Source of the DNA: Vermamoeba vermiformis | Taxonomy: Eukaryota | Direction: 5' to 3' | Assembly (NCBI GenBank): GCA_045837725.1 | Contig: JBEWZL010000044.1 | Coordinates: 372,001-436,000, forward strand | Length of the DNA stretch: 64,000 nucleotides | Shown here: positions 3,301-39,802 of the stretch, piece by piece | Layout: each line of letters begins with the position of its first letter | Numbering within the stretch: position 1 is the stretch's first letter | Position numbers and translations under genes: made by a program | Notes under the pieces: generated by a model | The model's input: only the letters and a program-made list of their open reading frames with translations | What the model was told of the DNA's origin: nothing | The model's database searches: none

Positions 3301-4178
3301 CGAGGACCTCACTGCTGCCTCTGCGGCCCTCGAAATCGCGCTGGAAGACCACGAGATCTACCGCAAGATCTTGCCGCGCGAATTGATTCAAAAGGCCTGG
3401 ACTCGCGAGAATGCCAAAGATCTTGCGCCGAATGTGACACTGCTGTCCTCGCGCTTTAATATGGTAAGTGCACTAGTGCAACGCAGGGACGTGTCACTCA
3501 CGCAATCTGATGACAGCTGGGTCTGTGGGTGGTGTACGAAGTGACGCGTCACGAGAACATCAAAGACCGCGCGAGTTCCCTGGCCTCCATCATCGACATT
3601 GGCGAGGAGTTGTTGGCGCTCAAAGACTACAGCTCCGTGCTCGCTATTGCCAGTGGACTCAACAATGCCTCGCTCACCCGCCTCAAGAAGACATTCGCTG
3701 TACGTACAAGCAGTGCTTATTTACCGTGCTCGACTGACTGACTGTGCGCGCAGAAACTGAGCGAGAAGTCGTTGGAGAGTTTGGAGCGGTTGAATCACCT
3801 CGCGAGTGGTGAGGGCAATTACAAGCTACTGCGCAACATGGTCACGAATGCTGAGCCCCCTGTGGTGCCTTGCATCGGTGAGTACTCTCTGTGCATATAC
3901 GAATGAATCACATGACTGATTGGAGAGCGGCAGTGTTCACCCTCAAGGACTTGACCTTCATCGAGGACGGCAATCCAGATCAGCTCGAAGGCGTGGGCAT
4001 CAACTTCTACAAGTGGCGTCTAGTCTCGGATGTGATACAAGAGGCACTGCAATATCAGAACATCCCCTATCCCTATCCTTCAGACACTGTCATTCGCGCC
4101 TATCTCGGCACACACATCGCCAAGGCAGTGCAGCTCGGTGAAGATGGCCTGTACAAGCAGTCCAAGAAAGTGGAATAG
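331..4178 (+). CDS. Multi-exon RCC1-repeat + RhoGEF (DH) + REM + RasGEF (CDC25) protein
   Basis: RCC1 repeats (VFVWGDSEFGKLG, GEVFTWGWGEQGQLGHG, GELYAWGHNDMGQLG). DH motifs (LLRIERSYALKM; LKNLLIEPIKQIARY). REM (GGTVELLIERLT..FLLTYRAF). CDC25 motifs (YSSVLAIASGLN, PPVVPCIG, LKDLTFIEDGNPD, INFYKW). ATG at 331 inferred from an upstream exon joined by a GT..AG intron; stop TAG at 4176-4178. Confidence 0.9.
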
Positions 4179-7131: not shown

Positions 7132-10100
7132 TTACTGGGTCTCACACGAGGCAGGTGCATCGTCATTGAGTCCCTCGTCGTCGCTGAAGGGTCCCTCTTC
7201 CGTCTGTCCACTCTCCTCCGTCGCGCTGTGCACTGTGTTGGCAGCACGTTGGCGCATGGTCACGGTGAAGTCGGTGTCAATCTCGCGACACGTGGTGATG
7301 GCGTAGAGCAGCTTGGCACGCATCACATCGTACGAGGAGTAGACGGGCAGTGACAGCGAGAAGAAGCAGGTCTGTGCCTCGGGCAAGTAGCTGTCGTTCT
7401 CACTGATCGCACTCGGGCGTGGCGAGACTGTCGTGTCGCGCGGACTGGCTGCACGTGTGTCGGTGCGGGACTGCGCAGTTTTCATGAACGGCTGAATGGT
7501 GAAGAAGATGTTCTTGAACTCGGTGGCGTGTGGCAGACGTGATCGACCCCACACAAATCGCAGCAACAAGCCGCGCTCTTCTTCGTTCATGGACTCCAAC
7601 ACGCGCCAGAAGTCTGTCACGTGACGATCTGAGGCCTGTACACCACCTGTGTAGCGCGTGTGTTTCTAAAAATAGGTTAGACTGGCTCATTACTAAATTA
7701 GGCAAGTGACGTACTTTGAGCAGTTCAATGTCCACTCCTGGACGACCACAAATCTTCAACTCCAATTCTTTCCAGGTGAACAGTGCCAGCATGTGCGTCG
7801 GAACAATAGATCTCAGACCTCGCTGAATGGCGTCGATCTGTTGCTTGAATTCTTTGAGGCGATATTGCTCCACCAGGGCCGTGAATTCCTTCCTGTTTTT
7901 CCACCTAAAAATAGCCGCAATTAGCGTCATATCACAAAGTGCGGTTACAAACGTACTCGACGGCAACGTTCTTGCCACCAGGCTTCAATTCGACCACACG
8001 ACCGTCACTGGTCTTGACAGTAAATGTCTCGAAGATGTAATCGCGGAAATTTCCGCTGGTGAGTCCTTTGCTCGAATAGCCCTGAATGGTCTCCAAGTAC
8101 TGGCACAGACTCTTGTCAATCATTTCCAGATCTGATCGATCGGGTTTGATACCGAGCAGAGATTTCCAAATTAGGGAAGGGAAGTCCAAATCGATGACTG
8201 CGTTCTTGGTCCGCAGCGCAATGCCCATAAGCTTGCCGAGGAATTCAAACATTTGCAGCTCTTTCAAGCTGTGCGCGGCAGGGTTCGGAATGAACTTGTC
8301 TTGATTGTCGCCCACCCCGCTGTAGTAGTTCGGACAGCGAATCAACAGATTGAACGGCGGACGTTTGATCGCTGTGTCCGCGCTATTGTTAGCTGTGCTG
8401 TCAGTGCCAGGTGCCGGCACGAGATCAGCGCAGGTCAGAGTGATGGACTCGCGGTACGGTCCCCCTGCGTCATCAGCACCCTCGTTCTCAAAGCGCACTT
8501 CCCAGGCACGATCGTTCTGTCGCAAGCGCGCTGGATCTACGCCGCGCAGTGTGCGGAATAACTGCAAGAAGACGCAGTTGTCCAATCGATCGGTGTTGGC
8601 GAGCTGTCGGTCGAGTGCAATGGCTGGGCGCTTGAGATTGGACTGCGTGGCAATCAAGTGCTCGTTGAGCAGATCGAGCTTGGTGTCGTGGAAGATGAGC
8701 GGCTTGAGCGACAGTGTCAGCAGTGCAAAGGAGCCCTTGTCAAAGTCACTGTCCCCTGCTGGGTCCAAGTCATTGCGCGGATGCAAAGTCACGTGACTGA
8801 AGTCCAGCAGTGGCACTAGACCGCGCAGCTTGTGATTGAAGTGCCGCAACAGCTGTACACGGCGCGCTAACTGATTTGATGTCAGAGTGGCAATGCTCGG
8901 GTAGTTTTTCCGCTGCAGATTGTTCTGCATGGCGAATTCAGCGAATATTTCCGCGAGTGGCAATTCGTCAGTGCGCACTTTGAGTCGTTCACACTGCGCA
9001 TTGACAAACTGCACGAGTTCAGCGTCCATCAACAGGGTCCACTCGGTGCTGCTGGCATCGAGATCATCTACCAGGGCCAGTTGTTGCGTGGTCAGGGTCT
9101 GACCCGCACTGACAGCGCGCTTCTCCTCGCCAAACACAGGTGTCACGGTGAATCTGAAGCCCCAGTGCGTCACTTCCACCGCTGCATCGCTCAAGAAGGA
9201 CCAGATGAAGCTGTCGCCGGGGAAGACGAGTTCTTCAGTCGGGAACTGGCCCGTGAAGAAGCCGAGGTCATCACCGCCCACCACGTGCTTGGAGAACATG
9301 AGGTAGTCGCAGTTGACTTCTGTGCGACTGCGCGGATCAAACGATACAATCAACTGCCGCGCATTGGGTATGGCCACGGTGTTGGTGACGCGCACACCTC
9401 GCGGATAGGGATGCGGACTCTGCTCGACGATGATCTGCTTGTTGGCCTCGGAGATGGCCTCTTTGCACATCTCTGCGGGGAAGTCCTCGCCCTTGCTGAG
9501 CCGTTCAATGCACAGCACCGTGTTGACGGCCGAGTAGAACCAGCTGATGTCCACTTTGATCTTCTTCTTCTTGCGCTTCTTGCGCTTGCTGTTGTCCTTG
9601 CTGGCACTCTGCGCGGTGGAGGTGTGTTCGAAGCTCTCAGTGCGCGTGGCTTTCTTCTTGTCTTCTTTCTCGCGCTTCTTCTCGCCGCTGTCAGTGGTCG
9701 TGGTGCTCACTTGACTGCGCTCACTGCTCTCCAGCGACTCGTCTGGCTCTTCAGAACTCATGCGCTTGCTGCGGTCTTTGCGGCGCGGTGGAGGGGGAGC
9801 ACGTGTCTCTTTCTCGGTCTCGCTCACTGAATTGCGCCGCGGCTTCTTGGTGCGCGGATCTTTGTCCACGACTTCAATCTCCGCGGTGGTGATGGCCGTG
9901 GTAAGATCGATCCACGCGTCATTGGGCGTGGTTAATTTGTGCATTTGAATGATCAGCTCAAACAAGCGCTGGCAATACAGCGAGTGTTCGCCACCAATCT
10001 TCTTTTCGAGATCGTGCAGTTCAAACAGCTCAGATTTGAGCGGCTCTAACTTGTTCAGATTGGGCTTGCTGTCTTTGGGGAAGTCGTCCCAGCGCTGCAA

Positions 10101-13100
10101 CAGCTTGCGCAGCACTGTGATGATCTTCAGTCGCCGCTCAAAGGTGCACTTGCCCTGTGAAACAATGGTCAGTGACACGTGTCAAACATGTCAAATCAGC
10201 GAGCGCAATCTACCTCCAAGTGCTGCACGAGCAAGTTGAACACATCTTTGCTGTAGAACTGTTTGATCCAGAACGGATCGATCGTCAAGAACCAGTCCAC
10301 GAGCAGGAAGCCAATGTCAAAGCTAGGCTTGTTCAACAGCTGCGTGTCACTCAAGTGTTGTCGCAGTGGTGTCACGTGGAATTTGACACCAGTCTCTTGG
10401 CCGAGATCGCCCTCGTCGTTGATGTCGAGTGTGAACCAGAACCGATTGCTGTCAATCACTGTGGGCGGGAAACAACACGCGCCCTTGCCCGTGTACGAGT
10501 TGATCAGATCCGTGCACGCTACATTTCTTGACGCAACAGTGTCAGTACGAGTAGTTCGTATACACAAGCGCTGTTGAAATACCTGTAGAATCGCAGCACA
10601 TTGAGGCCCGGCTTGAGACTGGAGTGCGTGTCAAATGTGACGAGCAGCGATTCAGCACCGAGCACGTAGACCATCTTGCGCAGCTTGGAGTGCACCGTGT
10701 CGTAGGGATACCAGTGCTCGATGGTGATGGGCGAGGTGTGCTCTTGACTGATGCTCTCGCGCAGATGGGCGATGCACTCGGTGACGAACACGCTGTCCAC
10801 ACCTGCAGACTTGGAGAGGGGCTTGACCTGCTGCACGGTGAGTATATAGCAGATAGATATATATGAACATTAGCTAGTGTGTTGAGTACATACGGCTTTG
10901 TTCTGCGCAGTAGAGTAGCGCTTGATGAGCGAGGCCCAATCCGCGCGCTCTTCACTGCTACCAGTCTGCAGCACCAGTGTCTTGTGCACGGTGACGAGTG
11001 TGAAGCTGTAGTCGTCGCGGTCCTTGTCTTTGTCCTTGTCCTTCTTCTTCTTCACCTCCACCGTGCCCTCCACCGACACAATCTCCGCGAGATCTACCGC
11101 ACCAACAGGGGTCGTGGCCTGCGGTGACTTGTAGTAGTACAAGTAGCCGTTGTTGAGCGTGAACCAGTACTTCTTCCACTGCTTGAACATCTTGCCTTGT
11201 TTGTTCATGTAGCCTGATTTGGCAACTTGCGGACTTTCCTTTTTAGGCTTTTTGGTCTTGTCCGTGGATGCACTCTGCAGCAGATGCGAGACAGCTTCTT
11301 TCTTGATCAGCGAGGTCAGTTTGTTCTCCAACAGATGCAGCTCTGGCCCAATAGTCCAGCGATACAGCTCGGGTGTCTGGCGGCGTGCACTCGCGAGGTC
11401 CAGTGCGTAGGCGAGTTTGAGCAGACCAATCATCTTCTTGGGTCCACCGAGCGAGGAGATGTTCAGCTTGTTGGCGTGCGGCAGACTGGCCATGAGATTC
11501 ATCAGCGCGTAACGGCTGTACAGTATCGCGAGATCTGACTCGACCAGCAGCGCGAGGGCACGCAGCTCGTAAATAGGACCCTGCAGCAGCTCGTCAAAGT
11601 GCATGAGACAGTGCGTGTAGGTCTGACTGTAGTACGAGTCCAGCATTGGATCGGAATTGCTCCGCTCTCGTCGCTCACTCACTGAATCGCCGCGCGGTCG
11701 ATCACGTGACTCGCTGTGCGGTACGGGCACGTGACGCAGTTCATTGACGCTGTACCACCACTCTTCCACACAGCCCGTGCGACTGTCGACGAGTCTGAGC
11801 AGCACTTCGCGGGGCTGCGGATCGAGTGCTTTGATGACACCCACCAGCCCCACGGTACGGTCCATGGCTCCACCTTGCCACTGACCGCGACCTCTGCGCG
11901 CAGGACCGCTCACCATCACCGCACTGCCCACACTCAGCTCGTGCCAGCGAATGGGACGTGCCATCACGGTGCCATCTTCCTCGAGTTCATCGAGTGAGGC
12001 CCCGACCATGGCACCAATCACGTGCGGAGATTCTTCCGAGATATCGTCCTCAGATTCAGGCACATCGACCACACCCGATCCGACTTCAGATGTGCGCCGC
12101 TCGTTGAGCTCTTCATCGGGCGGAGCAGTGGCAGGCAGATTGATGTTGAGTTTCTTGAGGAACTGCGGTGCTTGTGCTTCGAACAGCCGCTTCATCAGCA
12201 TGATGGACAGCCGTTCAATCTTGAGCAGATGTGGCTGCTCGTCCTTGGAGATCTGCGTGAGCGCGTGATCGATGAGCGGGGTGAGCAGATCGGGCACTTG
12301 ATGCAGCAGATGTTTGATGGCGCGGTCGTTCTGAAACATAATGTGCAGCACTTTGAGCGCACGTGATTTGAAGCGTTGGTAGATGAGCAGCTTCTTCACC
12401 TTGAAGAACGGCGAATTCGCTGAGCGATCTTGCAGGAATATGACCAAACTAGGAAATATCTTGGGTGCAATCTCGAACCAGCTGGGATCGACGGGCACAG
12501 AGGGCAAGGGGCGCAGCGAGCTGATGTTGTGCACCGTGGGCTGAATGGGCTTGGAGCGGCCCTTGATGAACTGCTTGGAGGACTCGAGCAGCACACTGGC
12601 CCACGACTTGTTGGGCTTGAAGTCCACCAGCACACCGACATCTGTCGCGTTGTTGCCCTCGAGCTCCACGCGCACTTTACCGCCCACGCGGAGATCATCG
12701 GTGTCACCTCCGAGCACGGAGATGGATGCAAAGCACGAGATGAGCACGCTGTTCTCGAACTCAGGTGTGAGGGGCGGAGCAGCATTGAGTGCTGGGGGAG
12801 TGATGTTGAAGGACGACAAGAACTGCGGCAAGTGACCGAGGGCGTGGCTGATCATTTGCAGCACCACTGGTCGCCAGTGCGCGGTGGTCAGCAGTCGACG
12901 CAGCAGTGCAGTGACTTCAGAGGCGAGGGCCATGGACTCGTGGCCAATGCGCTCAATCTCTTCTTGCTTCATGCGCTTCTTCACCTTCTTGACCACGGGT
13001 GTGAGATCGTAGCGGAATGGCATTTGACCAAAGTTGACCGCAATCGAGGCACCCTGGGCAGAGAGACCAACAGCGGGGTAGTAGGAGCCATAGACGTTCT

Positions 13101-16100
13101 TGAATGCAATGCCCTGGAACACGCCGTTCTTGGTGAAGAAGATGGTGTTGGTATTCTTCACCCAGCCACATCCGACAATGTCTCCTGCGCCGTAGCTCGC
13201 TCCGTAGTGTTCGCCCGAGGGAACTGCGCTGTCTTCGTGCGAGGCGTAGCGCGAACTCAGCTTGTGTCCGTGCTCGCTGTAGTAGCCGAAGCCTGCATTG
13301 GTGCCGGGCAGACCGAGGGCTGGCAGCGAGGAGTCGGAGGGCCAGAGTCCTATTGCAATCATGCCGTGACTGGTGCGGGGGTCAGTTGAGGGGTGCATAT
13401 AGACAATCACTAGACTAGGTACTTACTCATCGGAGCCCACGTCATCAATGCGCACCTCAAAGTAGAAGAGCGACACGGACTCGGGGATGGTGCTGTCAGC
13501 TTTGAGCAGCACAGCTTGCGCACTGTGTTCGATGGGCCCTACCACAGTGGCAGTGCGATTGAAGGACGACAGCCGCACCGAGGGGTGTTTGGTCTGCGAG
13601 TCACGTGCCCACCCTGACGGCAGTGCCACGAGGGCGGAGCTGTAGAGCGGAAAGAACGGATGTGAGAGCGAGAGACGGCCTGGTCGCGCATCACCGCGGG
13701 GAGTGAGCAGCGTGAACACATTGCGAATCGAACCGAGCTGCAGTGTGGGCGAGGAAGAGGTGAGCAGCGATTGCAACAATTGACGCATGGTGGCACTGGT
13801 GGCTTGAATGCCGCGCTCAATGTCATTGCACGCCCAAGCCTGTACCGTGCCGAGTATTTCAAACAGCAGCGTGACTATGCGCAGAGGCCACTGCGTGTCG
13901 TCATTGGGCCCTGGTGAGGACGGAGCTGTGGTGACAGGCAGCGGTGTGACGACAGGTGTGGGCGTGAGGGTGGCCGCTGAGCCCGATGAGGAGGGCGAGA
14001 GATTGAGGGGCTGGGGCTCAGTCTGCGAGGGCGAGGAGTCTGTGCCGTCAATGCTGCCGCGCGGAGTGCTGGGTGCTGAGCTGATCGGCGTCTGTGTGGG
14101 GGGTGTGAGCGGTGTGGGACCGAGGGTAGAGCTGCTCTTGCTGAGTGGCACTGTGCCACTAGATGTCGAGGAGGGTGGTGGCACTGGCATGCTGGCACTG
14201 AGTGGATTGGCGTTATTGCTCGGCGCGGTAGTAGTCGTGCTGGGTGTGACCACGACAGAGGGTATCTGCGAGAGCGAGACGAGGGGCTGGGCAGGAAGTG
14301 GTGGCACCAGCACGGGCACGACGCAATCAGGGGCGAGTGTGGTGAGCGGCAGAGCTGTGGAGAGCAAGCGCAGCACTAACTTCTGCGCGTCAAAGTGACC
14401 GGACGTCAAGTAGCGCGTCCAGACCTGTGTGAAGGGTGGCTTGAGCAAGCGCGTGGTGACGGACTCGGAGCTGTTAGTGCCACTCTCGCTCTCTTCGCTC
14501 TCACTCGCAATCGCTTCACGCCGCTTGGCATCGATGATGGTGAGCAGATAGAGCAGCCGCACGAGTTCTAGCTGCTGCAGACTCGGTCCACTCTCACTCG
14601 GCGCAGTGCTCGTGGTGCCTGTGCTGGCCGGAGCGAGACTAGTGCGCGGTGAGACGAGTGTGTCCTCGCTGTTGGTGCTCCACGTGTTGGCGAAGTCGTC
14701 GAGGTGTGCAGCCATGAGTTTGAAGAAAGACTCTTTGAGGCCCAGGATGCCCTTGTGGTGCGGATGATCGCTCTCATCGGGTGTTGTGATCGTGTTCACC
14801 ACCATCAGCTTGAAGATGATCTTCGCATTGAAGTGCAGACGTCGTCGTGCGCGCTTGTCCTCTTCGCTCTCTTGCTGCGGACCCATCCACGAGCGCATGA
14901 TCAGACGATACAAAATAGGAAATATGCGCACCGAATTGAGGAACAGATAGTCTGCTGGCTTGAAGCTCAGTGCCCACGAGTCCAGCGCGAGCAGCTGCAG
15001 ATTGAAGTCGTTGTTGTTGTCGCGCAACAAGATACTCAGCTCATTCATCAGTTCAGTGAATGCCGTGTTCACTGAAGAGAGCAGTCGTGCACCACAGCCC
15101 GCGAGGTGATTGGCGTAGTGATGGGGCCAGCTGTTCTTGACTTGCCCGCTGTTGCGCAATGAGGGGCCTAAGAAGCACAGCGCTTCTATCTTCATCGAGT
15201 TGAAGGACGCGCGTGCGAGCAGTGCTCTGATGGCCTGCAGACCCATGGCACGACTGTTGGCACGGGAGCGACGCAACAGCAAGACACGGCGAATGTCTTG
15301 CACGGTGATGGGACCCAAGAGCAGCTCCAACAGTGTCTTGCTGATGACGCGGCGCTGCTTTGAAGTAGCTGGCACAGCGCGCAAGTGGACCAACAGCTCA
15401 GCCTTGGCACTCACACTCAGCGTCAGTTCGCGCCACATCTCTTCTTTGCTCTTCGTGCTGTCGTCTACCTCGGCCACGGCTTGCATGCGACGCAACAGTG
15501 TCTCGCGTGCAGTGCGCATGGTGCTGATGAGATCGAGCAGTGCGGCACTCGGCACGGGCAGCTGTGCATTCAGCGACTGGTGCAGCTGCAGACCTGGCAC
15601 AACGAGTGCACTGCGCGCTACTGCAAATTCATAGGCAGCGCGCGCGATGGTCAGGTGTCGCAAGAGTGCTGCGAGTATGGCGCGCTCGATTGGGATGAGA
15701 TTGGTGATCTTGATGATGGTCTGACCCGACTTGTCTGCTATCCACTGCGCGAACAGGAGGCCGAGGCCGCGCCCTTCTTTCACATCGAGACAGAAATCGC
15801 GTTCTGGATCAGCGGACAGCGGCATCGTGTTCAGATTGACGGGTGCGCTGTTGACAGGTGTCAAAAGCTTGTCCACCACATCCTCGCTGAGTCCGCCCTG
15901 AAAGATGTCCTCGCTCAACAGCTTGTCGTACACTCGCTCCTCTTCAATGAGTGCCTCGCCGCTGATCAGTGCTGCAGCGAGGTGACCGACCAGCGAGCAG
16001 AGTGTCTTCTCGAGGTGAATGCTCCACGGCATGGTGATCTTGCGACTGTCGGACATGTTGCCCATCACAATGCAGCGGTAGCCCCAGCGCGTGTTGATGG

Positions 16101-19100
16101 CTTCATCGCGCGGCACTGCAGTGCTGGGTCCGTTCTCTGAATGGAAGTGCAGCATCACCGTGTCACCTGGCACCAGCACGCGTCGCTTGGGCCAGCGCGT
16201 CCTGTCACCGCTGTATCTGTCACCAATGGGCACGAAGGACGGTGCCTTGCTGGTGGGCTCGAGACCCACTAAATAGTACTGGCTGTCAGCGGGGTCTGCA
16301 CTGAATCCTGTGCCCGGGACATTGAGCTGTGGGATGCAGAGCTGCAAGTAGTCACGTGACTGCTGCGAGTAACAGCGCTCATCGAACACAATCGACAAGA
16401 ACACCGCACCAGGCACGCGCACAATCACTTTGGTGTCGACCCCCGAGGCATAAGGGTGCTGTGACTCGACGACTTGGTGCGGTGCTGGATTGGCAGTGCC
16501 GAGGTTGTTGAAGCTGGCCGAGTGCGGGGCATTGAACTCACCGCTGTTGAATGTGAGCGAGTCCCTGTTGCTGTTGTTGCGCGTGAGGGGTGCGGGCAGA
16601 TTGATGGAGCCAGGCCCCATGCTCAAGTGCGCAGTCTTGCGGTGCTGCAGCTTGGGATTGCTGTCAGTGCGCTTGGAGGAGTGATCGAAGTCAATGGCCA
16701 TGAGTCGATTGATCTGATCCACCGCTTGAATGAGATCGAGTAGCTGTGGCATGATCTGATGGGCGAGCCAGCAGTTGTTGGAGAACAAGAACAGCGTGTG
16801 CATCAGTGTGGGCATGAGCGAGCCCACCACTGACCACTGAATCTCCGTCAAGTGATCGGGTGTGAGCGCGGTGAGTGAGGCACTGAGCACGCGATCGAAC
16901 AGCTCTTTGAACTGCGTGGTAATGAGCTGCACGTAGATGATGAGTGCGCGTGCGGGTATGTCCGAGGCCGAGGAGTACTTCTCTGCGCGCAACAAGAGGT
17001 CTTTTTGAATGGCTTGCAACAGGGGCAGCACGGGGGACAGCCCACTGCTGTTGAGTTCGTGCGCCTCTTTGACCAGACGCGTGATCAGCGGCACGAACAG
17101 ATGCAGCGGATCAATCTTGGACTCCTCGGGTATCTTCTCCATGCCCGCTGCGTCCATTTCATCGTCGCTGGGGGGCAGCACGAGATAGGACGGTGAGCGG
17201 TGATTGACGAGCACATCGAACAGCGAGTGCAGCAACATCTTGGAGCCAATGCCGAGCTCGTTGTGCACTACACTGGTGGACTGCGTGAGCAACTTCAAGA
17301 TGAAGCGCGCTTGTTCGGTGTGCGAGGGGTAGAACACTTCCAGACCCACTGTGAGCACGTCACACGCCTCCGACTGTATCTTCAGCATCAGTCGTGCGCA
17401 CTGTTCGTTGCGCGTGAGTTGTTTGTCGAGCGGTGCCTCGCTGATGAAATAGAGCAGCAGCTCACGAATGGACATGAGCAAGTTGTACTCGCGAGGCTTG
17501 GGCGAGGTGATGCCACTGTCTTCATCGAACAGACTCAGTGGCGGAGGGGCGAGGTTGATGTCGCGCGGGTGAATTTGATTCGCTGCCAGTCTGGTATACA
17601 TATGGTTAGCTCATTCATGAAACACAAATATACCGTATACCTGTGAATGTTGACTTTGAGAATGCGCAGACAATAGAGAGTGATCTGCAAGGGACGAGTG
17701 ATGTCCGGCACAGCTTCATTCTGAGCCTGCAGACTGGACTGCTGCAAGATCTGGTGCAACAGCTCATAGGTCTGACCGTGCACCTCCACGCAGAATGGTT
17801 CGCGCAGACTCGAGTGTCGCGAGGACGAGGTGGTGTTGGGCTTGCTGAAGTTGTTGAACAGATTGCTCTCGCGGTGCTTGCCCTCGCTCGAATTGGGCAT
17901 GGACTCCACGGAGAAGCGCGACAGGACTTGCAAGATGAGCTGCGCAATCTCCAAGGGCTGCAAATCTCGTCCTTCAGGGGGCAGTGCGACTTGATCGTCA
18001 TTGCTGCGCCGACTGCGCTTCAATTTGGGGAAGTGATGCTTGGGTGCAATGCCTTCATTCACGTACCAGGCCACTTCGAGCTCTGAACTCGAATACGACC
18101 AGATGACATTGTTCACGTGATCGTAACACACTGCCGGGCCTGCGTGCGAGAGATTGAATTAATGACTATATTAGGAAATAGTGCCAGCAACACTCACCAA
18201 TCGGCGTGTCAATAGGGAAATTTCCGACAAGAGTTCCATCGCGCAGATTGAAGCAGCGACAGATGTACGTTTGATTATCAAAGTTATATTCAGTGGCTAG
18301 AGGCGGGGGCACGACGACCATTAAATATTGACCGTTCGTGTAAAATGACGCCTTGTCCACACATTGTGCGCTGAGTACTGGTGCGGAAAAACTAGAGAAT
18401 TCTTTGCATTGACATGAGCTAATTAGTGCACGAACTAGACTTGACAATTATAAGGATTGCGTACCAGAATCAGGATAGCGCAGTTCGATGCGAGTGATGT
18501 GTCGCCAATCGACGAGTGGGTCATATATATCCACACAATACGAGCCCTGGCGACCTCCGCCCAACAGACCAATCACGTAGATCAATCGCCCGTCGCTGAT
18601 CACGGGAGTGCGCGATGAAGGGGACTCGGGCTTGACGAGCAGACCTGTGTGCAGTGTTGGACTGGGCAGGTCTTCGAGGCCCAATGTGACGAGTTTGATG
18701 CTGCTCGGAGTGGTCACGTAACTGCGCCAGACGAGCAGACTCGTGCCCACCACTGCCATTGAGCCGCGGTCAGCTGGCCAGTCCGAACGACGTGCGTAGA
18801 TACGACCCTGCAGTGTGCCTTGCAGTCCAGTCCCGACTTTGACGAGTCCGGAGCCGTCGTGCAGGTAGAGATATGCCCCGTCGGTGGCGAGACTCGGGGG
18901 TGATTCGGGATCACTGCGGGCCACTGTCATAATCTCCGACCATGAGATCGACCACGTGCCTGCAACATGTCAACAAGTGTCACATCAACACGCATACAGT
19001 GCTGTACGTACCACACAAGTTCTCGCGTTTGAGAGGACTGAGCGGCAGTTCAATGCGCCAGTCACACAACTTCTGCAGCATGGAGGTGATGTGCAGCGGG

Positions 19101-31025: not shown

Positions 31026-32921
31026 ATGGCATCACAATTTTTAGCTGAAAAAAGAGAAGCTTCTGCTGGCCTCAAAAAATTAACCGATGAGATCGAAGCA
31101 TTAAAAAAACAATTGCAAGCTGAACAACAAAAGCGACAAGATCTAGAAGAACTCATAAAATCTCAATTAGCGACTGTATTACAAAAAATCGAATCAGATT
31201 ACGACACTGGAAAATTTTTGCACAAGATTAACGAGCTTCAAACGCAATTAGAAGAGGAAGTGAGTGCTCGGGCTAAATTAACTCTGTGGATCAAGGAAAA
31301 TATCGGTATGACTCAGTGTCGTTCATCATTTGCGTATCTAATCGAGTACTATACAATATAGGTCCTAATTTAGAACACGTAAAAGATGCAACAGCACGAC
31401 AGATCAAAGAAGAAATCTCGCGATTGGGACACACTGGCTCAAAACCGCGCAGCAGTAGTAATATAGATGGCAATACAGTGACCAGTAAGAAGAGTTCCAC
31501 TTCCAAGCCTGCATCGGAAGCACATCCAACACCCAAGCCCAAACCCGAAGAATCTTCGACTGCAACGGTCAAAAAGAGCTCGTCAGACACTGCTAGCACC
31601 ACAAGTGGTCATACAACAGCTAGTACTAAGACTAAATCGAGTCGACGACGCAAAAAACAAGCAGAAGAAGAGATCCAACTGCGCGATGATGAAGACAGTC
31701 CGTGGGACCAGAGTGACGATGAGTCTGATGAACAATTGAGCTTGGATCAGTTCATTCCGCCGTACGATACTACTACAGCATTAATATTACACGCAATTCT
31801 AATATTTATTCAGTGCGCGACCTCGATTAATTGCTCGTATTCCGCGCTTGGTGCTGATCGAAGAACATTGTTTTGGCACTAAAAATATCGACGAGTATGA
31901 ACTACCAGGTACCTATTCTCTATAAATATCCCCGCAAGTGATATACTAACTGATTGTACTAGAAAATGATGCCTCGAAGAAGACGAGTCTGAATCGAGCC
32001 AATTACTTCCTCAACAAGAATTCACAAGCTAAATTTCAATACAGATGTCTCGAGCTATATCAAAAGGTGTGTATTAACAGTAGCTATAGGGCCCTATTGA
32101 CACGCGTTGACAGGTCCAAAAATTCCAAACACGTGGCGGCACGGTGGTATTTGCACCACTGACGGACGAAGAGCTGGCCAAAGACGACTTTAAATTCAGC
32201 ATCAAGACACACGATCGAGTGTACCCTGTCTGTCCTGATGGTCTGCACCGCTCACAAGTGCTGTACTTGGTCATGAAGGGAATCAAGCGCATTCTCGGTG
32301 TCAAAGAAGGGGTTTATCTGCCGCACGGAGCACTGCACGGCTATGATCCACTCGTGTACGATGAGAGTCCGAACAGTTTGAAGAGTGTAAGTGACAATTG
32401 AGTGCTGCCATAACACTCGATTAATCCTTCGAATGGAATAGCAAGCTGAATTTGTGCACTTTTCCACGGAGCTGGACAAAAACACCAAGATATCGCAAGC
32501 ATTCTTAGCAGCATTCGGACAAGAAAAAGCGGCTAGATTTGGTCAAAAAGAGTGCGGTGCCAATGAACTAAACTTGAACGAAGCAGCCAAGAAAGATTTG
32601 TTCCGCAATCAGATTGAATCAATCAAACGGACGCGAGTGCGCATGCATGAATTCTTCGACATTTATTTCTATCAGCAGAGTCTCGAATCCAATTCCAAAC
32701 GACAATCACGCAGCATTTACGTCACATTCGGCAGTGCAGTCCCAGTGGTGCTCGATCGATTGATGGAAGTAAACACGAATGCACAACAACTGGCCAATGT
32801 GATCGTGGTAGCACTGCCTTATGGCACTGAACCATTCAACAGCCCCACGGTCACACCACAGAGCTTGGCTCAACTGTACAGATTTTATTCAACGCTCTTC
32901 AAGCCACTGACAGACAAATAA
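31026..32921 (+). CDS. Hypothetical protein: N-terminal coiled coil, S/T/K-rich linker, C-terminal domain with a CX5R(S) motif
   Basis: Spliced reading frame through ORFs 31026, 31286, 32144 and 32454. Motif VYPVCPDGLHRSQ at ~32219-32257. Confidence 0.7.
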
Positions 32922-32950: not shown

Positions 32951-35900
32951 TTACTCGCGCAACACGGCGCTGGGACAAATGTTTGAATATACACAGCCGC
33001 TACATTTGACCTCAGAGGGTGTTGCTTGGAAGGTGTTCGTTGCTAGTGTGTTTGCGAACTGGAAGAACAGTGTTTGTAGCTTGACATTGTCGTCGTAATT
33101 AGGGACGTAATCAAACTTCTCGCCAGTCTCAATGGACTCGAGAACTACTTTGAGTGGTCGCACGCCGTAGACTTGTTCGTAGGCCCAGCCATAAATCATC
33201 AGCTGCAACATGGTGTGCTGTCGCTTGGTGCGCGTTGAAGTCTTGTACTCGGTGATGATGACACCTTGCGCTGTGTGGTCAATGCGATCCCACGTGCCAG
33301 TCAGCTCCACTTTCTCGGACAATTTGATCACAAAGGCTTGTTCCATCTTGTCAGCCACTTTGCCTTTCTCGCTCTCTCGCTTCTGAAAATTGACAAAAGT
33401 AGCCGCTGTCTTAGTGACGACTTCTTGCTTGGGTTGTACCTAATGCGTCATGTTAGATATGAAAGATCAATACGAGTGATTTCTAGCGTACCACTACTGG
33501 CTGCTTGACAGGGGTCTTGGCGCGATTGATTTTGTCTTTAATTGCCTCACTGGCCATTTGCGCCACTTCTTCAGTGTCAAGTGTCATTTCTTTCTTTTCT
33601 TTCTCTTTTTCTTTGAGTTCTTTTTCTTTCGCTTCCTTCTCTTTCAGCTCTTTTTCCTTGGCTTCCTTCTCTTTTGTTTCTTTTTCTTTGGCCTCTTTTT
33701 CCTTGGTCTCTTCCTTCTTCTCAGCAGGTTTCTCTTTCACTTCTTTTTCCGTCTCTTTCTTCTCGCTGGGTTTCTTTTCCTTCTCTTTCTTTTCTTTTGC
33801 CTCTTTAGCTTCCTTTTCCTTGGCTTCTTTCTCCTTCGGTTCTTTTTCTTTCACCTCTTTTTCCTTGGCCTCTTTCTCTTTTGTTTCTTTTTCTTTCTTT
33901 TCTTTGACTTCTTTTGTGTCCTTCTCTTTCGTTTCCTTTTCTTTCGGCTTTTCTTCCTCCTTCTTTTCAGCTGCTTTTTCTTTTTGCTCGGGTGTTTTCT
34001 GTTGTTCGGACACGCCCTCCGCAAATTTCTTCTCGCGTTCAATCGTGGCTTTAACTTCAGCTTCTTGTTTCTTGACGTCTTCTTCCGCTGATTTATCTGC
34101 TTGCTTCTTGTCTTCTTCGTCTTTGCGAATTTCATTGTAATCTGCAATCTTTTCGTGCAAAAATTGACCAGCAGATTGATAATCAAAATATCTGTGAATA
34201 TTGTCAGTCTTATTGTCATATTTATATGACTCTAACGTACCTTGTTGGTCGCATTTTCAACACGAATCTGTAACAGTACTGCAACGGACAGTGGATGTAA
34301 CTCACAATCGATGTGAACGAAATACGATCGAGCCTGCAACAGGTTAGTGTCACATGAGTACAGTAATAGAATCGATTGCATACGTGTGAGGCATGGTCAC
34401 TTCAAACGGGGTAGTCCATTGCGATGGAGTGCCCGGCACGTCCATCTTCTCGGGCTTGGTGACATCGGGTGGCAAGAGCGAGGTGATGCCTGCCAAGTGA
34501 GATTGCAGGCCCAGCGAGTTAAGTTCAGTCGCTTTGATGCTGTCTAATATGCCTTGCAAGTGCTCGACTTCGCCCTCTTCCATGATATCGGGCACGTTTG
34601 TCACGTACAAGTTGTGAAATGTTTGCCGCAACGAACTGATTGGAGCGTGAGTCATGTGCTAAATACAACAGACGAGATTGAGTGGCTTACTTGTAGAACA
34701 TTTGACCAATTTGATGCTTCTTCACACTGATATTTCTCGGCTTTTCAAACATGAACGAAGTAGGCACGTCTGAGATCATTAACGTTAGTAGTCAAAAGCG
34801 TCAAATCAACAACGCGGCACGTACTCAGTTGAGTCTTAAGATACTTGAGTCGAGAGCCAATAATAATTGTCGTGTGTGTCGGTGTCGTTGAAATGGTGTC
34901 AAAAGTGCTCAGCCGAACACCACTCGTGAGGTACGAGATCGGCAGCTGATCCACGTGCAGATCTGACAAGAAACTCAACAACATGACCAAGTGCTTGCGA
35001 TTAGCGATTTCAATAGGACCCTGTTCTTGTCCGACAACTTCTTTCAGCACTTGCGCTGTCTTGGACTCGCCGCTCATGGCACTTGCGACCGCGTCATCGT
35101 CCGCCGAGGGCACTTGACTTTCAAATCTGTTCACGACTTCAACGAGTCTCCTGTAATTGTTCTTCTGTTGTTCGGTAGCTGTTTTGAGTGGTACAATAGT
35201 CTTTTGAATGAACTCGGTGATCAGTTCTGAAGGTTTGACTGTTTGAGCGCGGAACATGTTGACGTAGTGGTTCAAACTCAGCTTGAATGCATTGCATTTC
35301 TGCGACAATACGGTCAGTATATGAACACTAAATACATTACTATACAATACCTGCAGGGTCTCCTGACTGATCGTGTATTTGGGATATTGACCGTTGGCTA
35401 ATTTAGGATAAATGCGGAAGAAATCAGATTTGTAGAGCGATGCAGCCAAAAATATCGTCTTGATCTCTCCTTCAGGATCGAAGCCATAATACCGCGTCAT
35501 GAGCTCGTACAACGATCGATTGATGTTGAATGATCGCGTCTCTTCACTCGCCTTTGCCTCGCTCTCGCTGACCTCGCTCATCTTTCTCGGCTTGTTCGAG
35601 AACAGCTCCAAGTACGAGATGTCGACGATGAGCTGCAAGAAGAGCAAGGTCGCTCTGATCTCAGGCTCGTTGAGCACATTTTCAATCACGACAGGCACTT
35701 TGTGTTTGACATTGAGCTGCTGGGCCACTTGAGCGATTTGATCTTTGGCCATGACGACACGAATGTCACCGTAGCCGAGTTTGAATTGATTGACGTATCG
35801 GTTCTGCAACGACTGAATCAGCTGTCCAATGCTGTCAATCTCTTCTGTGTTCGACGTCGTGTTGAAGTAAAACACATTGCCGTTCTTTTTGCCCATTGGA

Positions 35901-37296
35901 GTGCGGTACTCGTAGTCGACAAAGCTCGTGTTGGGATTGTCGCCCTGATTGATGTTCAGCATTTGGATCATAGAACTCGCTGCTTGCTTGATGCCCAGTG
36001 ACGCGGCACGGTACTGCAATTGCGTTTGAATGACATTGACGTGCGGTGACATGTCTTTGCGATTCAACACGCGCGTGTCAAAATCAATGACGTTCAATAT
36101 CGCGGTGAGTTGTGCTGCCGACGGCTTGCTCAGGACTTGTAGCCTCTCCATAGCCTTCAACACATTCAAGGTCGGTTCGTTAACTACGAGGTGACTGTAT
36201 TTGTTGAAATGTAGCTTGCCCAGCTCACTTTTCATTGCGTCACTCAGCGGCAATGTTCGCAACTTCAAACTGAACGTGTACGCATTGAGCACTTTCTTCG
36301 AATTTTTCAACGTGACATATCTGTTGTAAATCACGGCGAGTGTTTGCTGCATTTTGATATTTTTCACCGCGCTGTCAGGCACTCCTCCCTCCAATTTTTG
36401 CATCAAATGCTCTGCATACTGTTGCGGTGACACATTGAAATATTCGAGCCTGTATCATCGGTCAATATTTGTCGCCCTCATTACAGGTCATGGTGCACGT
36501 ACTTCCTGAAAAATTCGACCAATCGGTGCACCTCTTCAGGCCGGAACTGTGAATCTTCACCAACTACACTGCTGAAGTTCTTGAACAATAGCAATGCTTC
36601 GTCAGTGCTGTCCAACAGCTTGGCTCTAATGTACATCAATAGTATTAGAAGTGTTCGGTGCCTGAAGTTCAATAAACTCACTCTTCTGTTTTGAGTAAGG
36701 ATAACAATACCGAGCTCAAAAAGTCTTCAATAGTCTGTACATCGACTTGTACTGTCTGTTCGTTATTAATTGATAAGTACAAGTCTGGATCCAACAAGAT
36801 TGCACACAATTACCTGTACTGTTTTATTTGCTATTAGGTCTGCCACTAACTCCTGCGCCATTTCAGTGTCGATAAGGGAGTGAGTTAAATACAAAACTGG
36901 CTTGGGACCTAATGAAAGCATTTAATAATTGTCATTGAGTTAAATCATAATATAATACCTGTCAGCTCTCCAACTATTCGTTCAAGCACATTATATTTCA
37001 TACGAGGCGAGTCAATTCCATGGCTAATAAGAACTCTGGGAGGAATATCTTTTGGAGCAGGCTGATAAATACAGATCAGATCGCGATCGTTAAAAATCAA
37101 AAAAAAAATTAGAAAAATACTAAATAATCAAAAGTACTTTCAAATTTTACGGTGCAATATTTAGCGATCATAAATTAAATTTTTGAAAGCATACCGAAGG
37201 CCGCTGCGTATTTTGCCCTGTCACTGAGCGCTGCAGATTGATCACAAGTGCAGCTCTTCGAACTGCAGCACTGGCAGCCTTTAATACACGAAACAT
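32951..37296 (-). CDS. Degenerate UvrD/PcrA-like helicase fused to an Fe-S PD-(D/E)XK (RecB/AddB-type) nuclease, with a predicted mitochondrial presequence
   Basis: N-terminus MFRVLKAASAAVRRAALVINLQRS. UvrD-like motifs appear in the expected order but are degenerate. Nuclease motifs ISFTSIVSYIHCPLQY, GQFLHE, GTWDRID..EYKTS, QLMIY, CSGCVYSNIC. Confidence 0.8.
33483..34160 (-). repeat. Coding KE-rich low-complexity repeat (EKEAK/EKETK/EKEVK/EKELK pentamers)
   Basis: Imperfect 15-bp tandem units encoding about 200 aa of Lys/Glu, within one exon of the nuclease gene. Confidence 0.9.
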
Positions 37297-37758
37297 ATAT
37301 TACACGACCGCTCTTCTATAATACATGCACTCCTCTTTGTTCTGTGTTCTTGGGTTAAAAACAATTGCAGTAATAATGAAACACGAAAGTGCAAGACTAT
37401 AATACAAGGCTAATAGGATCGCTATACTAGTATCATCAATTTAGTGCTATTATTTTATTAAAAGCCCACATCGTTAACTACGAGAACGCTTGGCGGAGCC
37501 AAACAGATCGAATTTATTTACACTAGTTTCAGCTTTTACAATTCTACTCTATCCTGCCTCCCAAGACTCTGCTGTCGTAAAAGTGTAACTACTATGGCTT
37601 CTATTTTGAATAATCTAAGTCACTTCAAAAACACTGAATTCTTAATTTGATGACGAGCACGTGACCACTCCACCTCGTGATGGTTGAACTCAACTGATTA
37701 GTGTATTGTTAATTTCTTACTCCAACTTTACGAGCTAATAGACGTCACCTGTGGCAGA

Positions 37759-39802
37759 ATGTTCGCAAAAACCGCACAGATTTGTTTCAAAAACAGTAAA
37801 AATGTTGCAAAAATAATTTCCTGCAAAGCAAATTGCAAGCTATTTAGTACTTCTACCTCTTTGGTAAGGCCACTGCGTTGGAAATCAATTTTAATTTAAA
37901 TAATTAATAAAAAATCCAAATAATTCTACAGAGGTCAGATCTGCCTCCTCCAAAGCAACTTCCACAACGGAGAGTGGTAGTAACTGGATTAGGTCTAGTG
38001 ACTCCTCTTGGAGCAGATGTGTCAACAACGTGGACAAGACTTACTAACGGCGAATGGTTTGTATTTACTCCGTTCCTTGCAGCTATTAATATTCCTCATT
38101 AGTGCGGTCGATCGCATTACTACATTTGACACTTCACAACTGCCCTGCAAAGTCGCCGCGACAGTCAAGCGAGGCACACAGCCTGGTGAATTCAACTTGG
38201 ACCAGTGGGTGCCTAAAGCGGTAATAACGATTGACGAATATATGGTCGCTTATATAGAGTTAATTGCGCGTGTAGGAACGAAGCAAAATCACGCCGTTCA
38301 TTGAATACGCCATTGCCGCGTCCAGTCAAGCACTCAAAGACTCGAATTGGGCTCCGAGCACTGAAGAGCAGATGAACAGAACGGTGTGCCAGTCATTTGA
38401 GACTTCTAATATGAACTAACTCGTGCTTGACAGGGTGTCGCTCTTGGCTGCAGCATGGGTTCTGTGCAAGAGATCGCGGACACATTTCAGCTCTACAAAG
38501 ACAAGGTAATTCATGAACGAATTTCACTGAATGACCGCTAACAGCCTCACAGGGATATCGCAGAGTGTCGCCGTACTTCTTGCCCCGCGTGCTGAATAAC
38601 CTCGCAGCAGGCCAAGTGAGCATATTCAACAAGTTGCGTGTAAGTTGAGCATTTGTAATGGATTCAGCGGCTCAGATCTGTTAGGGACCCAATCATTGCG
38701 CATCCACTGCTTGCACGACTGGAGCACATTCCATAGGCGATGCATTCAAGTTCATTCAACGAGTGCGTACTACCGTCGCTAGTCGTCCACCACTCATCCA
38801 TTATCCCGCTAGGGCGATGCAGATGTCATGGTCGCTGGAGCTACTGAAGCAGCAGTTGATTTGATATGCGTCACTGGTTTCTGTCGGTAAGACACACAAG
38901 GCATCATGTAAAGCTCCGCACTAATAGCTGACTAGTGCCATGGCCCTATCAACTTCTTTCAATGACATGCCACAATCAGCTTCGCGACCGTTTGACAAGG
39001 ACCGGGACGGTTTTGTGATGGGTGAAGGCGCTGGTGTGATGATACTCGAAGTACGTCAATAAGACGCATATTTGCTATTGATCGCGATGCTTATAATGAT
39101 TGACAATAGGACCTCGAGCACGCACTCAAGCGTGGTGCTAAGATCTACGCAGAGATCCGCGGTTACGGTCTCTCAGGTGCGTTCACAAGGGACCGTGTAG
39201 ACGTTGCAGACCTTCATACCTTCCTTATTAGGAGATGCAAACCACGTGACCTCGCCTGCAGAGAATGGTATTGGCGCGCAGCTGTGTATGCGTGCAGCGA
39301 TTGAACAGTCCGGCTTGAACCCCGAACAGATCGGCTATATCAATGCTCACGCGACTTCTACGCCACTAGGTAAGATTGCATTGCCCTATTTAAGCATTGC
39401 GGATATTAATCCACGCAGGGGATCGCATTGAGAATCACGCCATTAAATCCGTGTTCGGCAACAATACACAATTGTCCGTGTCATCCACCAAAGGAGCTAT
39501 TGGTCATTTGCTCGGTGCTGCAGGAGCTGTCGAGGCCATTTTCACGGTACTCGCACTTCATACGGTAATTCACATTTCAATTTAATTCAACCGAAAAGAT
39601 TTTGCTAAACTTGTGTTTTCTATTTTTCTCGCAGGGAATTCTACCGCCAACAATCAATTTGAACAATCTCGACCCCGAATTCACACTCGACTATATTCCC
39701 AATAAGAGCATCAAAAAGAACCTTGTTGCCGCAATGTCGAACTCGTTTGGATTTGGTGGCACCAACGCGTCGCTGTTATTTTCTGTGCCTCCAAAAGTGT
39801 AA
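37759..39802 (+). CDS. OXSM: Mitochondrial 3-oxoacyl-ACP synthase (FabF-type), many introns
   Basis: [15 protein letters not shown], catalytic [71 protein letters not shown]. Basic presequence [14 protein letters not shown]. Confidence 0.95.

Follow-up and report, generated by a model that had tools for sequence, protein, structure and literature searches.

The bacterial protein AddB is described in PMC3321194 as an inactivated superfamily 1A (SF1A) helicase-like N-terminal region joined to an 'iron-staple' nuclease that carries one distant Cys and a CxxCx5C motif; Exo5 and Dna2 are placed there in the same iron-staple class. AdnA is presented in PMC13000450 as a motor-like domain with an iron-sulfur (Fe-S) nuclease that acts on the 5′ strand. 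The DNA analyzed here is a 64,000-nucleotide (nt) stretch of Vermamoeba vermiformis contig JBEWZL010000044.1 (positions 372,001 to 436,000; the window), in which an initial annotation had described an intron-containing gene for a mitochondrion-targeted, AddB/AdnA-like pseudo-helicase-nuclease. Computational follow-up of this gene revealed that (i) it lies on the minus strand at 37296-32951 and encodes 1227 amino acids (aa) in 12 exons in the final model; (ii) its product ends in an intact Cas4/AddB/AdnA-type iron-staple PD-(D/E)XK nuclease; and (iii) the long region in front of the nuclease lacks the ATPase motifs of a helicase and is under purifying selection. Read as a whole, the protein would combine a presequence of the mitochondrial type, a degenerate UvrD-type (SF1A) module and the intact nuclease, a reading for which we judge the arguments to be evenly balanced.

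Gene structure and the C-terminal nuclease

The locus holds a genuine eukaryotic nuclear gene that is spliced. The reading frame extends from an ATG at 37296 to a TAA at 32953-32951, exactly as in the initial annotation, and its N-terminus is fixed by an in-frame stop codon 3 bases upstream of the ATG. Splicing was examined with reads and contigs of four sequencing runs aligned to the region. The contigs of two runs, X5 and X6, were 95-99% identical to the window; their status as RNA is an automatic guess only, while their intron-less joints with canonical ends are like those of complementary DNA. Eight of the 11 introns were found to be spliced out in these contigs, with GT..AG ends, and the contigs link exons 1-4, 5-6, 6-7, 7-9 (X6 contig 9 connects exons 7, 8, and 9) and 11-12. 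Ten introns measure 49-58 nt and the first 133 nt, and most have a CTAAC/CTGAC-like branch site close to the 3′ end. Introns 4, 9, and 10, for which no spliced contig was detected, were predicted with the backing of L242, a metagenome contig that carries an orthologue of exons 5-12 with 79% identity; there, too, the frame changes at these three introns, and stop codons fall within the skipped stretches. A first model built from reading frames and GT..AG sites (10 exons, 1268 aa) was superseded once the contigs revealed two additional introns and different junctions; its 20-nt intron 4 was replaced by the 56-nt intron of Table 1, and the extra 12 aa it had included are not conserved in L242. 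Two further features were observed near the 5′ end of the gene. The match of an X5 contig ends at 36699 within exon 4 and is followed by 31 unmatched letters, so that this transcript differs there by divergence or by another splice choice. In addition, the 5′ leader, which is covered by an X6 contig, holds a short upstream open reading frame (ORF) at 37326-37300 of an ATG, seven codons and a TAA, in the frame of the main ATG and ending 3 bases before it.

The nuclease assignment is carried mainly by exon 12. This exon matched the Pfam families PDDEXK_1 (PF12705; expectation value [E] 9.7e-16, 58.9 bits against a gathering cut-off of 22) and Cas4 (PF01930; E 3.8e-7, 30.8 bits against 22.7) as well as the NCBIfam model TIGR00372 cas4 (E 1.4e-12), while the Pfam families of Exo5, MGME1, and Dna2 gave no match on any exon piece at E<=1. 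The beginning of the domain appears to lie in exon 10, which weakly matched positions 1-27 of the PDDEXK_1 profile (E 0.065) and was aligned to the start of the alphaproteobacterial AddB (alpha-AddB) nuclease with a P-value of 0.056. When exon 12 was aligned with 14 actinobacterial relatives (alignment A1, 15 sequences), all of the invariant columns were found to be kept (14/14), including D1116, K1131, Q1144, Y1148, C1211, C1214, and C1220, and the one nearly invariant Asp column is occupied here by Glu, which corresponds to the (D/E)xK variant. The catalytic residues D1116, D1119, and E1129-x-K1131 (33289-33242) together with Q1144/Y1148 (QxxxY) sit in invariant or nearly invariant columns, and the C1211-x2-C1214-x5-C1220 triad is encoded at 33004-32975. 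The whole protein contains six cysteines, of which C816 and C821 lie within the N-terminal nuclease block that matches the PDDEXK_1 start. The four-cysteine pattern of one N-terminal residue plus CxxCx5C is present, with one of C816 and C821 as a candidate ligand, and the residues would be suited to hold an Fe-S cluster.

The fold of this exon is consistent with the family matches. An AlphaFold model of exon 12, made with alignment A1 as input and without the part encoded by exons 10-11, reached a predicted local distance difference test (pLDDT) score of 83.2 and a predicted template modelling score (pTM) of 0.74. Its best Foldseek match was the Cas4 chain 8d3q_J (E 2.2e-6), with 24 chains at E<=0.001, headed by Cas4 (8d3q, 4ic1), ACE1, the AddA nuclease, AdnA, Exo5, and Dna2; MGME1 and RecB were matched as well, the matches to Exo5, MGME1, and Dna2 falling at E 3e-4 to 4e-3. 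By query template modelling (TM) score the AdnA chains ranked highest (0.64-0.66), and the AddB chain 3u4q_B was found at rank 38 of the fold search with a TM-score of 0.30. The claim of an intact nuclease was borne out, and all of the motifs quoted for it fall in exons 10-12. Among Actinomycetota, exon 12 was matched in 66 of 151 genomes at E<=0.01 (the tally takes in the unpublished genomes G152 and G158). Of the best 30 matches, 29 were in open frames of <=526 aa and AdnA-sized frames scored lower; therefore, the nearest relatives by sequence are stand-alone Cas4-family proteins.

A Lys/Glu (K/E)-rich insert with imperfect KEKEAKE-like repeats (about 34127-33588) was observed to separate the GQFLHE helix from the catalytic strands, and exon 11, which encodes it, has a composition of 0.32 K and 0.29 E. 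The insert is about 180 aa long here and about 95 aa long in L242 (about 2560-2840), which indicates that its length changes quickly, given that the two orthologues are 79% identical. In the arrangement that we propose, the nuclease, which is interrupted by this variable loop, would have one plus three cysteine ligands.

The region preceding the nuclease

A regular-expression search of the 1227 aa detected no Walker A motif ([AG]x4GK[ST]) and no GK[ST], and the sole hhh[DN]E site was LVVNE at aa 253-257, in which NE stands for DE. The missing GKT and the change from DE to NE in Walker B had been noted in the initial annotation and are confirmed here. Judged by what these motifs are established to do, the protein is very unlikely to hydrolyze ATP. 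The ratio of nonsynonymous to synonymous substitution rates (dN/dS), determined against L242, was 0.099 for exon 6 and 0.114 for exon 7, on 366 and 157 codons, respectively, with dS about 1; values near 0.10 indicate purifying selection and, therefore, a region that is functional and not decaying. The middle module of about 700 aa would accordingly be one that has lost ATP binding and hydrolysis and has nevertheless been kept under purifying selection.

The ancestry of this region was addressed with a UvrD profile of 29 proteobacterial sequences from 30 loci, from which L230 was left out for its internal TGA; this profile and the AddB profile described below were drawn from genomes that a probe search had reached. 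By hmmalign, aa 167-257 were placed on the UvrD 1B-motif II segment, with HLVVNE on the iLVDE of the profile. By hhalign, aa 284-459 were placed on UvrD motif IV/2A; the best match of the single sequence set aa 301-440 against motif IV plus the first half of domain 2A (P 0.042), and addition of the orthologue lowered the P-value to 0.0064 over 153 columns and gave a second match on 1B-motif II. We also scored aa 35-800 against the profile with a semiglobal alignment of our own at several gap settings and with several null models. At gap costs of 4/0.1 (open/extend) the real score of 129.0 compared with 93.7+-6.5 for residue shuffles (z 5.4, 0/200; z 4.87 and 0/100 in a repeat), the z-scores against 30-aa and 60-aa block permutations were 3.86 and 2.84 (0/100 in each), and the reversed sequence scored 102.5. 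At 6/0.2, z was 5.0 against residue shuffles (0/200) and 2.68 against 30-aa block permutations (2/100). As controls, three true alpha-AddB N-termini reached z 3.1-4.2 at the first gap setting and gave no signal at the second, while 17 ORFs from random genome stretches had a mean z of -0.07 (standard deviation 1.33); the one outlier at z 3.47 with residue shuffles was found to be a ResIII/SNF2 helicase.

These alignments bear on the string of UvrD/PcrA motifs that the initial annotation had read in order along the region. Motifs II and IV, the 'YGDIRV' and 'EPEIRATLLFLQLI' blocks and the beginning of motif V line up with their counterparts in the UvrD profile, if with weak similarity, and the 2A strands likewise come to lie where they had been annotated, whereas motifs I, Ia, and Ib were placed differently by the profile alignment. 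The proposed motif VI, 'DLRRAYFV', does not survive the splicing data, as it spans intron 7 (34824-34770) and enters exon 8 in the wrong frame, and 'YVHHDL' and a 17-aa string beginning 'VLYSNVF...' proved to be intronic (introns 5 and 6); the remaining strings quoted lie within exons. Overall, the weak but collinear signals suggest that the region of aa 35-800, which gave no significant family match, probably descends from a UvrD-type helicase.

A fourth indication came from the ESM Atlas, in which the three best named neighbors of aa 167-456 were UvrD_C clusters (0.87, 0.86, and 0.86), a UvrD-helicase cluster ranked 6, and the whole ORF had a UvrD_C cluster at rank 5 (0.76). Several points weigh against helicase descent. 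ESM scores below 0.9 are leads only. No significant family match was obtained for aa 35-800: Pfam and NCBIfam gave nothing on the 569-aa ORF of exons 6-7, including no match above cut-off to the UvrD/PcrA/Rep models PF00580, PF13361, and TIGR01075, a PDB sequence search returned no helicase for aa 35-800, and HMMER with our UvrD profile gave -1.6 bits, below shuffles. In hhalign the single sequence scored 25.4, hardly more than the 24.9 reached by the top one of 40 shuffles, and only the pair with the orthologue, at 31.3, stands clearly above it; the hhalign probabilities are just 1-6%. The alignment test depends on gap cost, in that the signal is absent when opening costs 10 and extension 0.5 (z -0.80 against residue shuffles); cyclic permutations, which partly keep the order, reached 127.3 against the real 129.0, and at the second setting 4 of 17 exceeded the real score; and another control ORF reached 2.81 with block permutations. 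Single-sequence AlphaFold gave a mostly helical model of the helicase-like ORF that is unusable (pLDDT 37.8) and does not establish the fold of the region. At the transcript level, no single contig of X5 or X6 connects the helicase-like exons with the nuclease exons, RNA-seq data labelled as this species yielded few raw reads (1 and 11 aligned), and a look-up of sequencing runs containing the gene listed no RNA run.

Much of this would also be expected if the N-terminal 800 aa were not derived from a helicase and instead formed a mostly helical domain peculiar to this lineage that became joined to a nuclease of the Cas4 family, with the motifs arising by chance. The absence of a significant match in any library, the mostly helical if low-confidence AlphaFold model and the home-made, parameter-dependent nature of the alignment test are in keeping with this explanation, as is a phmmer search of 1.84 billion representatives (1,835,955,588) with the exon 6-7 ORF. 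That search returned three matches, two of them fragments of the same gene and the third a 1032-aa repeat protein that aligned in 10 stretches and was judged spurious. Against it, the best or the only matches of four methods fell on UvrD at collinear positions, and 16 of the 17 control ORFs had z about 0, the sole residue-shuffle outlier being itself a helicase. We regard a non-helicase origin as a tentative alternative, clearly less probable than descent from a UvrD-type enzyme.

Localization, possible function and genomic setting

The first acidic residue of the protein is at position 39, preceded by 38 acid-free residues; the first 34 residues contain 5 Arg and 1 Lys but lack Asp and Glu, and the helical hydrophobic moment is high at the very start (0.50-0.58 in the first windows). 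The acid-free, Arg-rich N-terminus is thus as initially described. It fits a mitochondrial presequence, and from this composition the protein is probably mitochondrial. A nuclear or cytosolic location, or one in some other organelle, with a role such as repair or defense against foreign DNA, would agree with the facts that localization is read from composition alone and that the closest nuclease relatives include the defense-linked Cas4 and ACE1; many Cas4-family nucleases act in repair or in foreign-DNA defense. With the N-terminus fixed by the upstream stop codon, its classic acid-free, Arg-rich and amphipathic make-up argues the other way, and a non-mitochondrial protein appears unlikely.

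If the protein is indeed a mitochondrial one with a degenerate UvrD-type module, it would be imported into mitochondria, where the dead motor may act as a scaffold that binds and guides single-stranded DNA (ssDNA), as in AddB, AdnA, and RecC. The motor remnant would pass an end of the DNA on to the Fe-S nuclease, which in turn may trim ends, flaps or linear fragments of mitochondrial DNA (mtDNA).

A more elaborate proposal, that of the initial annotation, is an AddB/AdnA-like subunit of a two-subunit, bacterial-type mitochondrial resection machine whose active UvrD-type motor-nuclease is encoded separately. The AddB/AdnA architecture of a motor-like domain plus an Fe-S nuclease, as described in PMC3321194 and PMC13000450, the top query TM-scores of the AdnA chains with the nuclease model and the purifying selection on the dead module, as a binding role would predict, speak for this proposal. 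Membership in the AddB family itself was not upheld. In an NCBIfam scan of eight exon pieces, each searched separately, TIGR02786 addB_alphas matched only exon 12, where it scored 18.8 bits (cut-off 486.5), and TIGR02773 addB_Gpos matched none of the eight pieces at E<=10. (A TIGR02773 search of 81 Acidobacteriota genomes returned a mixed set, with matches in 15 genomes, and was not used.) An alpha-AddB profile of 31 alphaproteobacterial sequences, drawn from 34 loci after removal of L122 (split), L149 (a 2163-aa frame), and L150 (truncated), detected the nuclease (HMMER 12.8 bits; hhalign P 0.0023, besides the exon 10 alignment) and was blank on aa 1-800 (HMMER -3.7 bits, best hhalign P 0.58, alignment z 1.04). 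This blank leaves an endosymbiotic AddB origin unsupported. Further counting against a two-subunit machine, a Pfam scan of 42 ORFs of the 64-kb window detected no UvrD-like gene that could encode the partner, and the nuclease is nearer to the stand-alone Cas4 family by the frame sizes of its best actinobacterial matches. Mitochondrial RecB-family nucleases such as Exo5 and MGME1 are not known to work with such a partner. On balance, a two-subunit machine seems improbable; its fullest form, an AddAB/AdnAB-type mitochondrial helicase-nuclease in which the present protein is the motor-dead Fe-S subunit, perhaps scanning ssDNA for a sequence signal like AddB/RecC beside a putative UvrD-type motor, is more doubtful still.

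The ends of mtDNA are thought to be processed by small nucleases (Exo5, MGME1, and Dna2) and not by large bacterial helicase-nuclease machines. A nuclear-encoded AddB/AdnA-like protein with a presequence would add a player to mtDNA maintenance and would exemplify a motor domain retained for binding after loss of its ATPase. Should there be a motor partner, this would mean that an AddAB-type resection machine can operate inside a eukaryotic organelle.

The gene has few detected relatives. Of 180 candidates scored among longer proteins in an exon 12 homologue search, none passed, and among near proteins 1 of 10 passed, a 97%-identical fragment. Pattern matches in genome contigs (44) and viral contigs (3) yielded no confirmed homologue, and a plasmid search gave one weak match, to a cyanobacterial PD-(D/E)XK protein. 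Because only near-identical copies and one 79% orthologue were found, the family looks narrow, and its general importance is therefore uncertain. Parts of the gene were also observed in runs X4, X7, X8, and X5-X20, comprising water metagenomes and runs labelled as six other coded organisms, at shares of 0.12-0.34; the organism or its close relatives may be common in water, or may have contaminated other samples.

The neighbors in the window are ordinary eukaryotic nuclear genes, including those for an RCC1-RhoGEF-RasGEF protein, exocyst Sec10, a HECT ligase, malate dehydrogenase, and BRCT and BTB proteins. A convergent neighbor at 32111-32921 (+), whose last exon has no Pfam match, ends about 30 bases from the stop codon, and gene order is conserved in that the same neighbor lies beside the orthologue (L242 3510-4362, -). 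Just upstream on the other strand, at 37911-38304 (+), exon fragments resemble by eye the N-terminus of a beta-ketoacyl synthase, in two short pieces with no Pfam match at E<=1e-4. Farther away, 757-3541 (+) appears to be one gene of an unusual multi-GEF architecture (RCC1 repeats, RhoGEF, and RasGEF-N/RasGEF), and at 7135-17610 (-) a very large gene encodes SPRY and PH domains besides a C-terminal HECT ubiquitin-ligase domain and contains an open exon of 1395 aa that no Pfam family matched.

Table 1. Exons and introns of the final gene model, in order of transcription (positions in the window)
Feature	Position	Strand	Description
Exon 1	37195..37296	-	aa 1-34; start codon and presequence-like N-terminus; unspliced X6 contig 37195-37348
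Intron 1	37194-37062	-	133 nt, GT..AG; spliced in X5 and X6 contigs
Exon 2	36959..37061	-	aa 35-68
Intron 2	36958-36909	-	50 nt; spliced in X5
Exon 3	36814..36908	-	aa 69-100
Intron 3	about 36813-36756	-	58 nt; spliced in X5, 3 unmatched letters at joint
Exon 4	36682..36755	-	aa 101-125; predicted 3′ end
Intron 4	36681-36626	-	56 nt, GTGAGT..CATTAG; predicted; removed stretch not conserved, stops in L242
Exon 5	36503..36625	-	aa 125-166
Intron 5	36502-36450	-	53 nt; spliced in X5
Exon 6	35351..36449	-	aa 166-532; helicase-like core; LVVNE 36190-36176 (Walker B position), QYRA 36016-36005 (motif IV position)
Intron 6	35350-35300	-	51 nt, in frame; spliced in X6; stops in L242
Exon 7	34825..35299	-	aa 533-690; helicase-like, including GVRLSTF
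Intron 7	34824-34770	-	55 nt, TACTAAC branch site; spliced in X5 and X6
Exon 8	34691..34769	-	aa 691-716
Intron 8	34690-34636	-	55 nt; spliced in X6
Exon 9	34384..34635	-	aa 717-800; linker to nuclease; 81% identical in L242
Intron 9	34383-34334	-	predicted
Exon 10	34241..34333	-	aa 801-831; nuclease start; Cys816 34290-34288, Cys821 34275-34273
Intron 10	34240-34192	-	predicted
Exon 11	33492..34191	-	aa 832-1065; GQFLHE helix, then K/E-rich low-complexity insert; partly covered by X5/X6 contigs
Intron 11	33491-33440	-	spliced in X5 and X6
Exon 12	32951..33439	-	aa 1066-1227 and stop; nuclease core

Comparison with known systems

With the UvrD/PcrA/Rep helicases the protein shares the weak collinear similarity over 1B-motif II and motif IV-2A and the UvrD_C neighbors in the ESM Atlas; it differs from them in having no Walker A, NE for DE, no recognizable motif III, no Pfam match and a C-terminal Fe-S nuclease. 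The eukaryotic relatives of this helicase group we take to be Hmi1, Srs2, Fbh1, and the inactive PARI. Exo5, MGME1, and Dna2 resemble it in nuclease fold, and the processing of mtDNA ends is an analogy that we propose; Exo5 and MGME1 are without a helicase-like part, and in Dna2 the nuclease precedes an SF1B helicase. The stand-alone Cas4 family (SSO0001, 4IC1; type I-C Cas4, 8D3Q; ACE1, 9IAB) provides the best matches in both sequence and fold, with the same catalytic and cysteine columns, yet its members, at 200-480 aa, lack a helicase-like part, whereas here about 800 aa precede the nuclease and a K/E-rich insert lies inside it.

AdnA (of mycobacterial AdnAB; PDB 6PPU, 6PPR, and 7SJR) is alike in joining a motor-like domain to an Fe-S nuclease and in giving the best query TM-scores. 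It differs in that AdnA keeps its ATP site and the present protein has no Walker A, and among actinobacterial frames the small stand-alone proteins match the nuclease exon better than those of AdnA size. AddB (of Bacillus subtilis AddAB; PDB 3U4Q and 4CEH) has the same order of parts, which here amount to about 1040 aa without the K/E insert; unlike AddB, the protein shows no family-level sequence match to that group, is encoded by a eukaryotic gene with 11 introns, carries a predicted presequence and has no known AddA partner. A search of open-access full texts and bioRxiv, without supplements or subscription journals, found no eukaryotic AddB-like protein; an apparent 'AddB' match in PMC13249166 was the word 'addback', and PMC7050145 has no occurrence of UvrD, RecB or AddA. 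From the design first proposed for this gene, that of a dead motor plus an Fe-S nuclease, the eukaryotic, spliced nature of the gene and the intact nuclease stand, and the design is the best reading of the evidence, although its helicase ancestry comes without a significant family match. A eukaryotic variant of this bacterial design would be new, and we infer for it a function in which a motor remnant, predicted no longer to hydrolyze ATP, may guide DNA ends to the nuclease.

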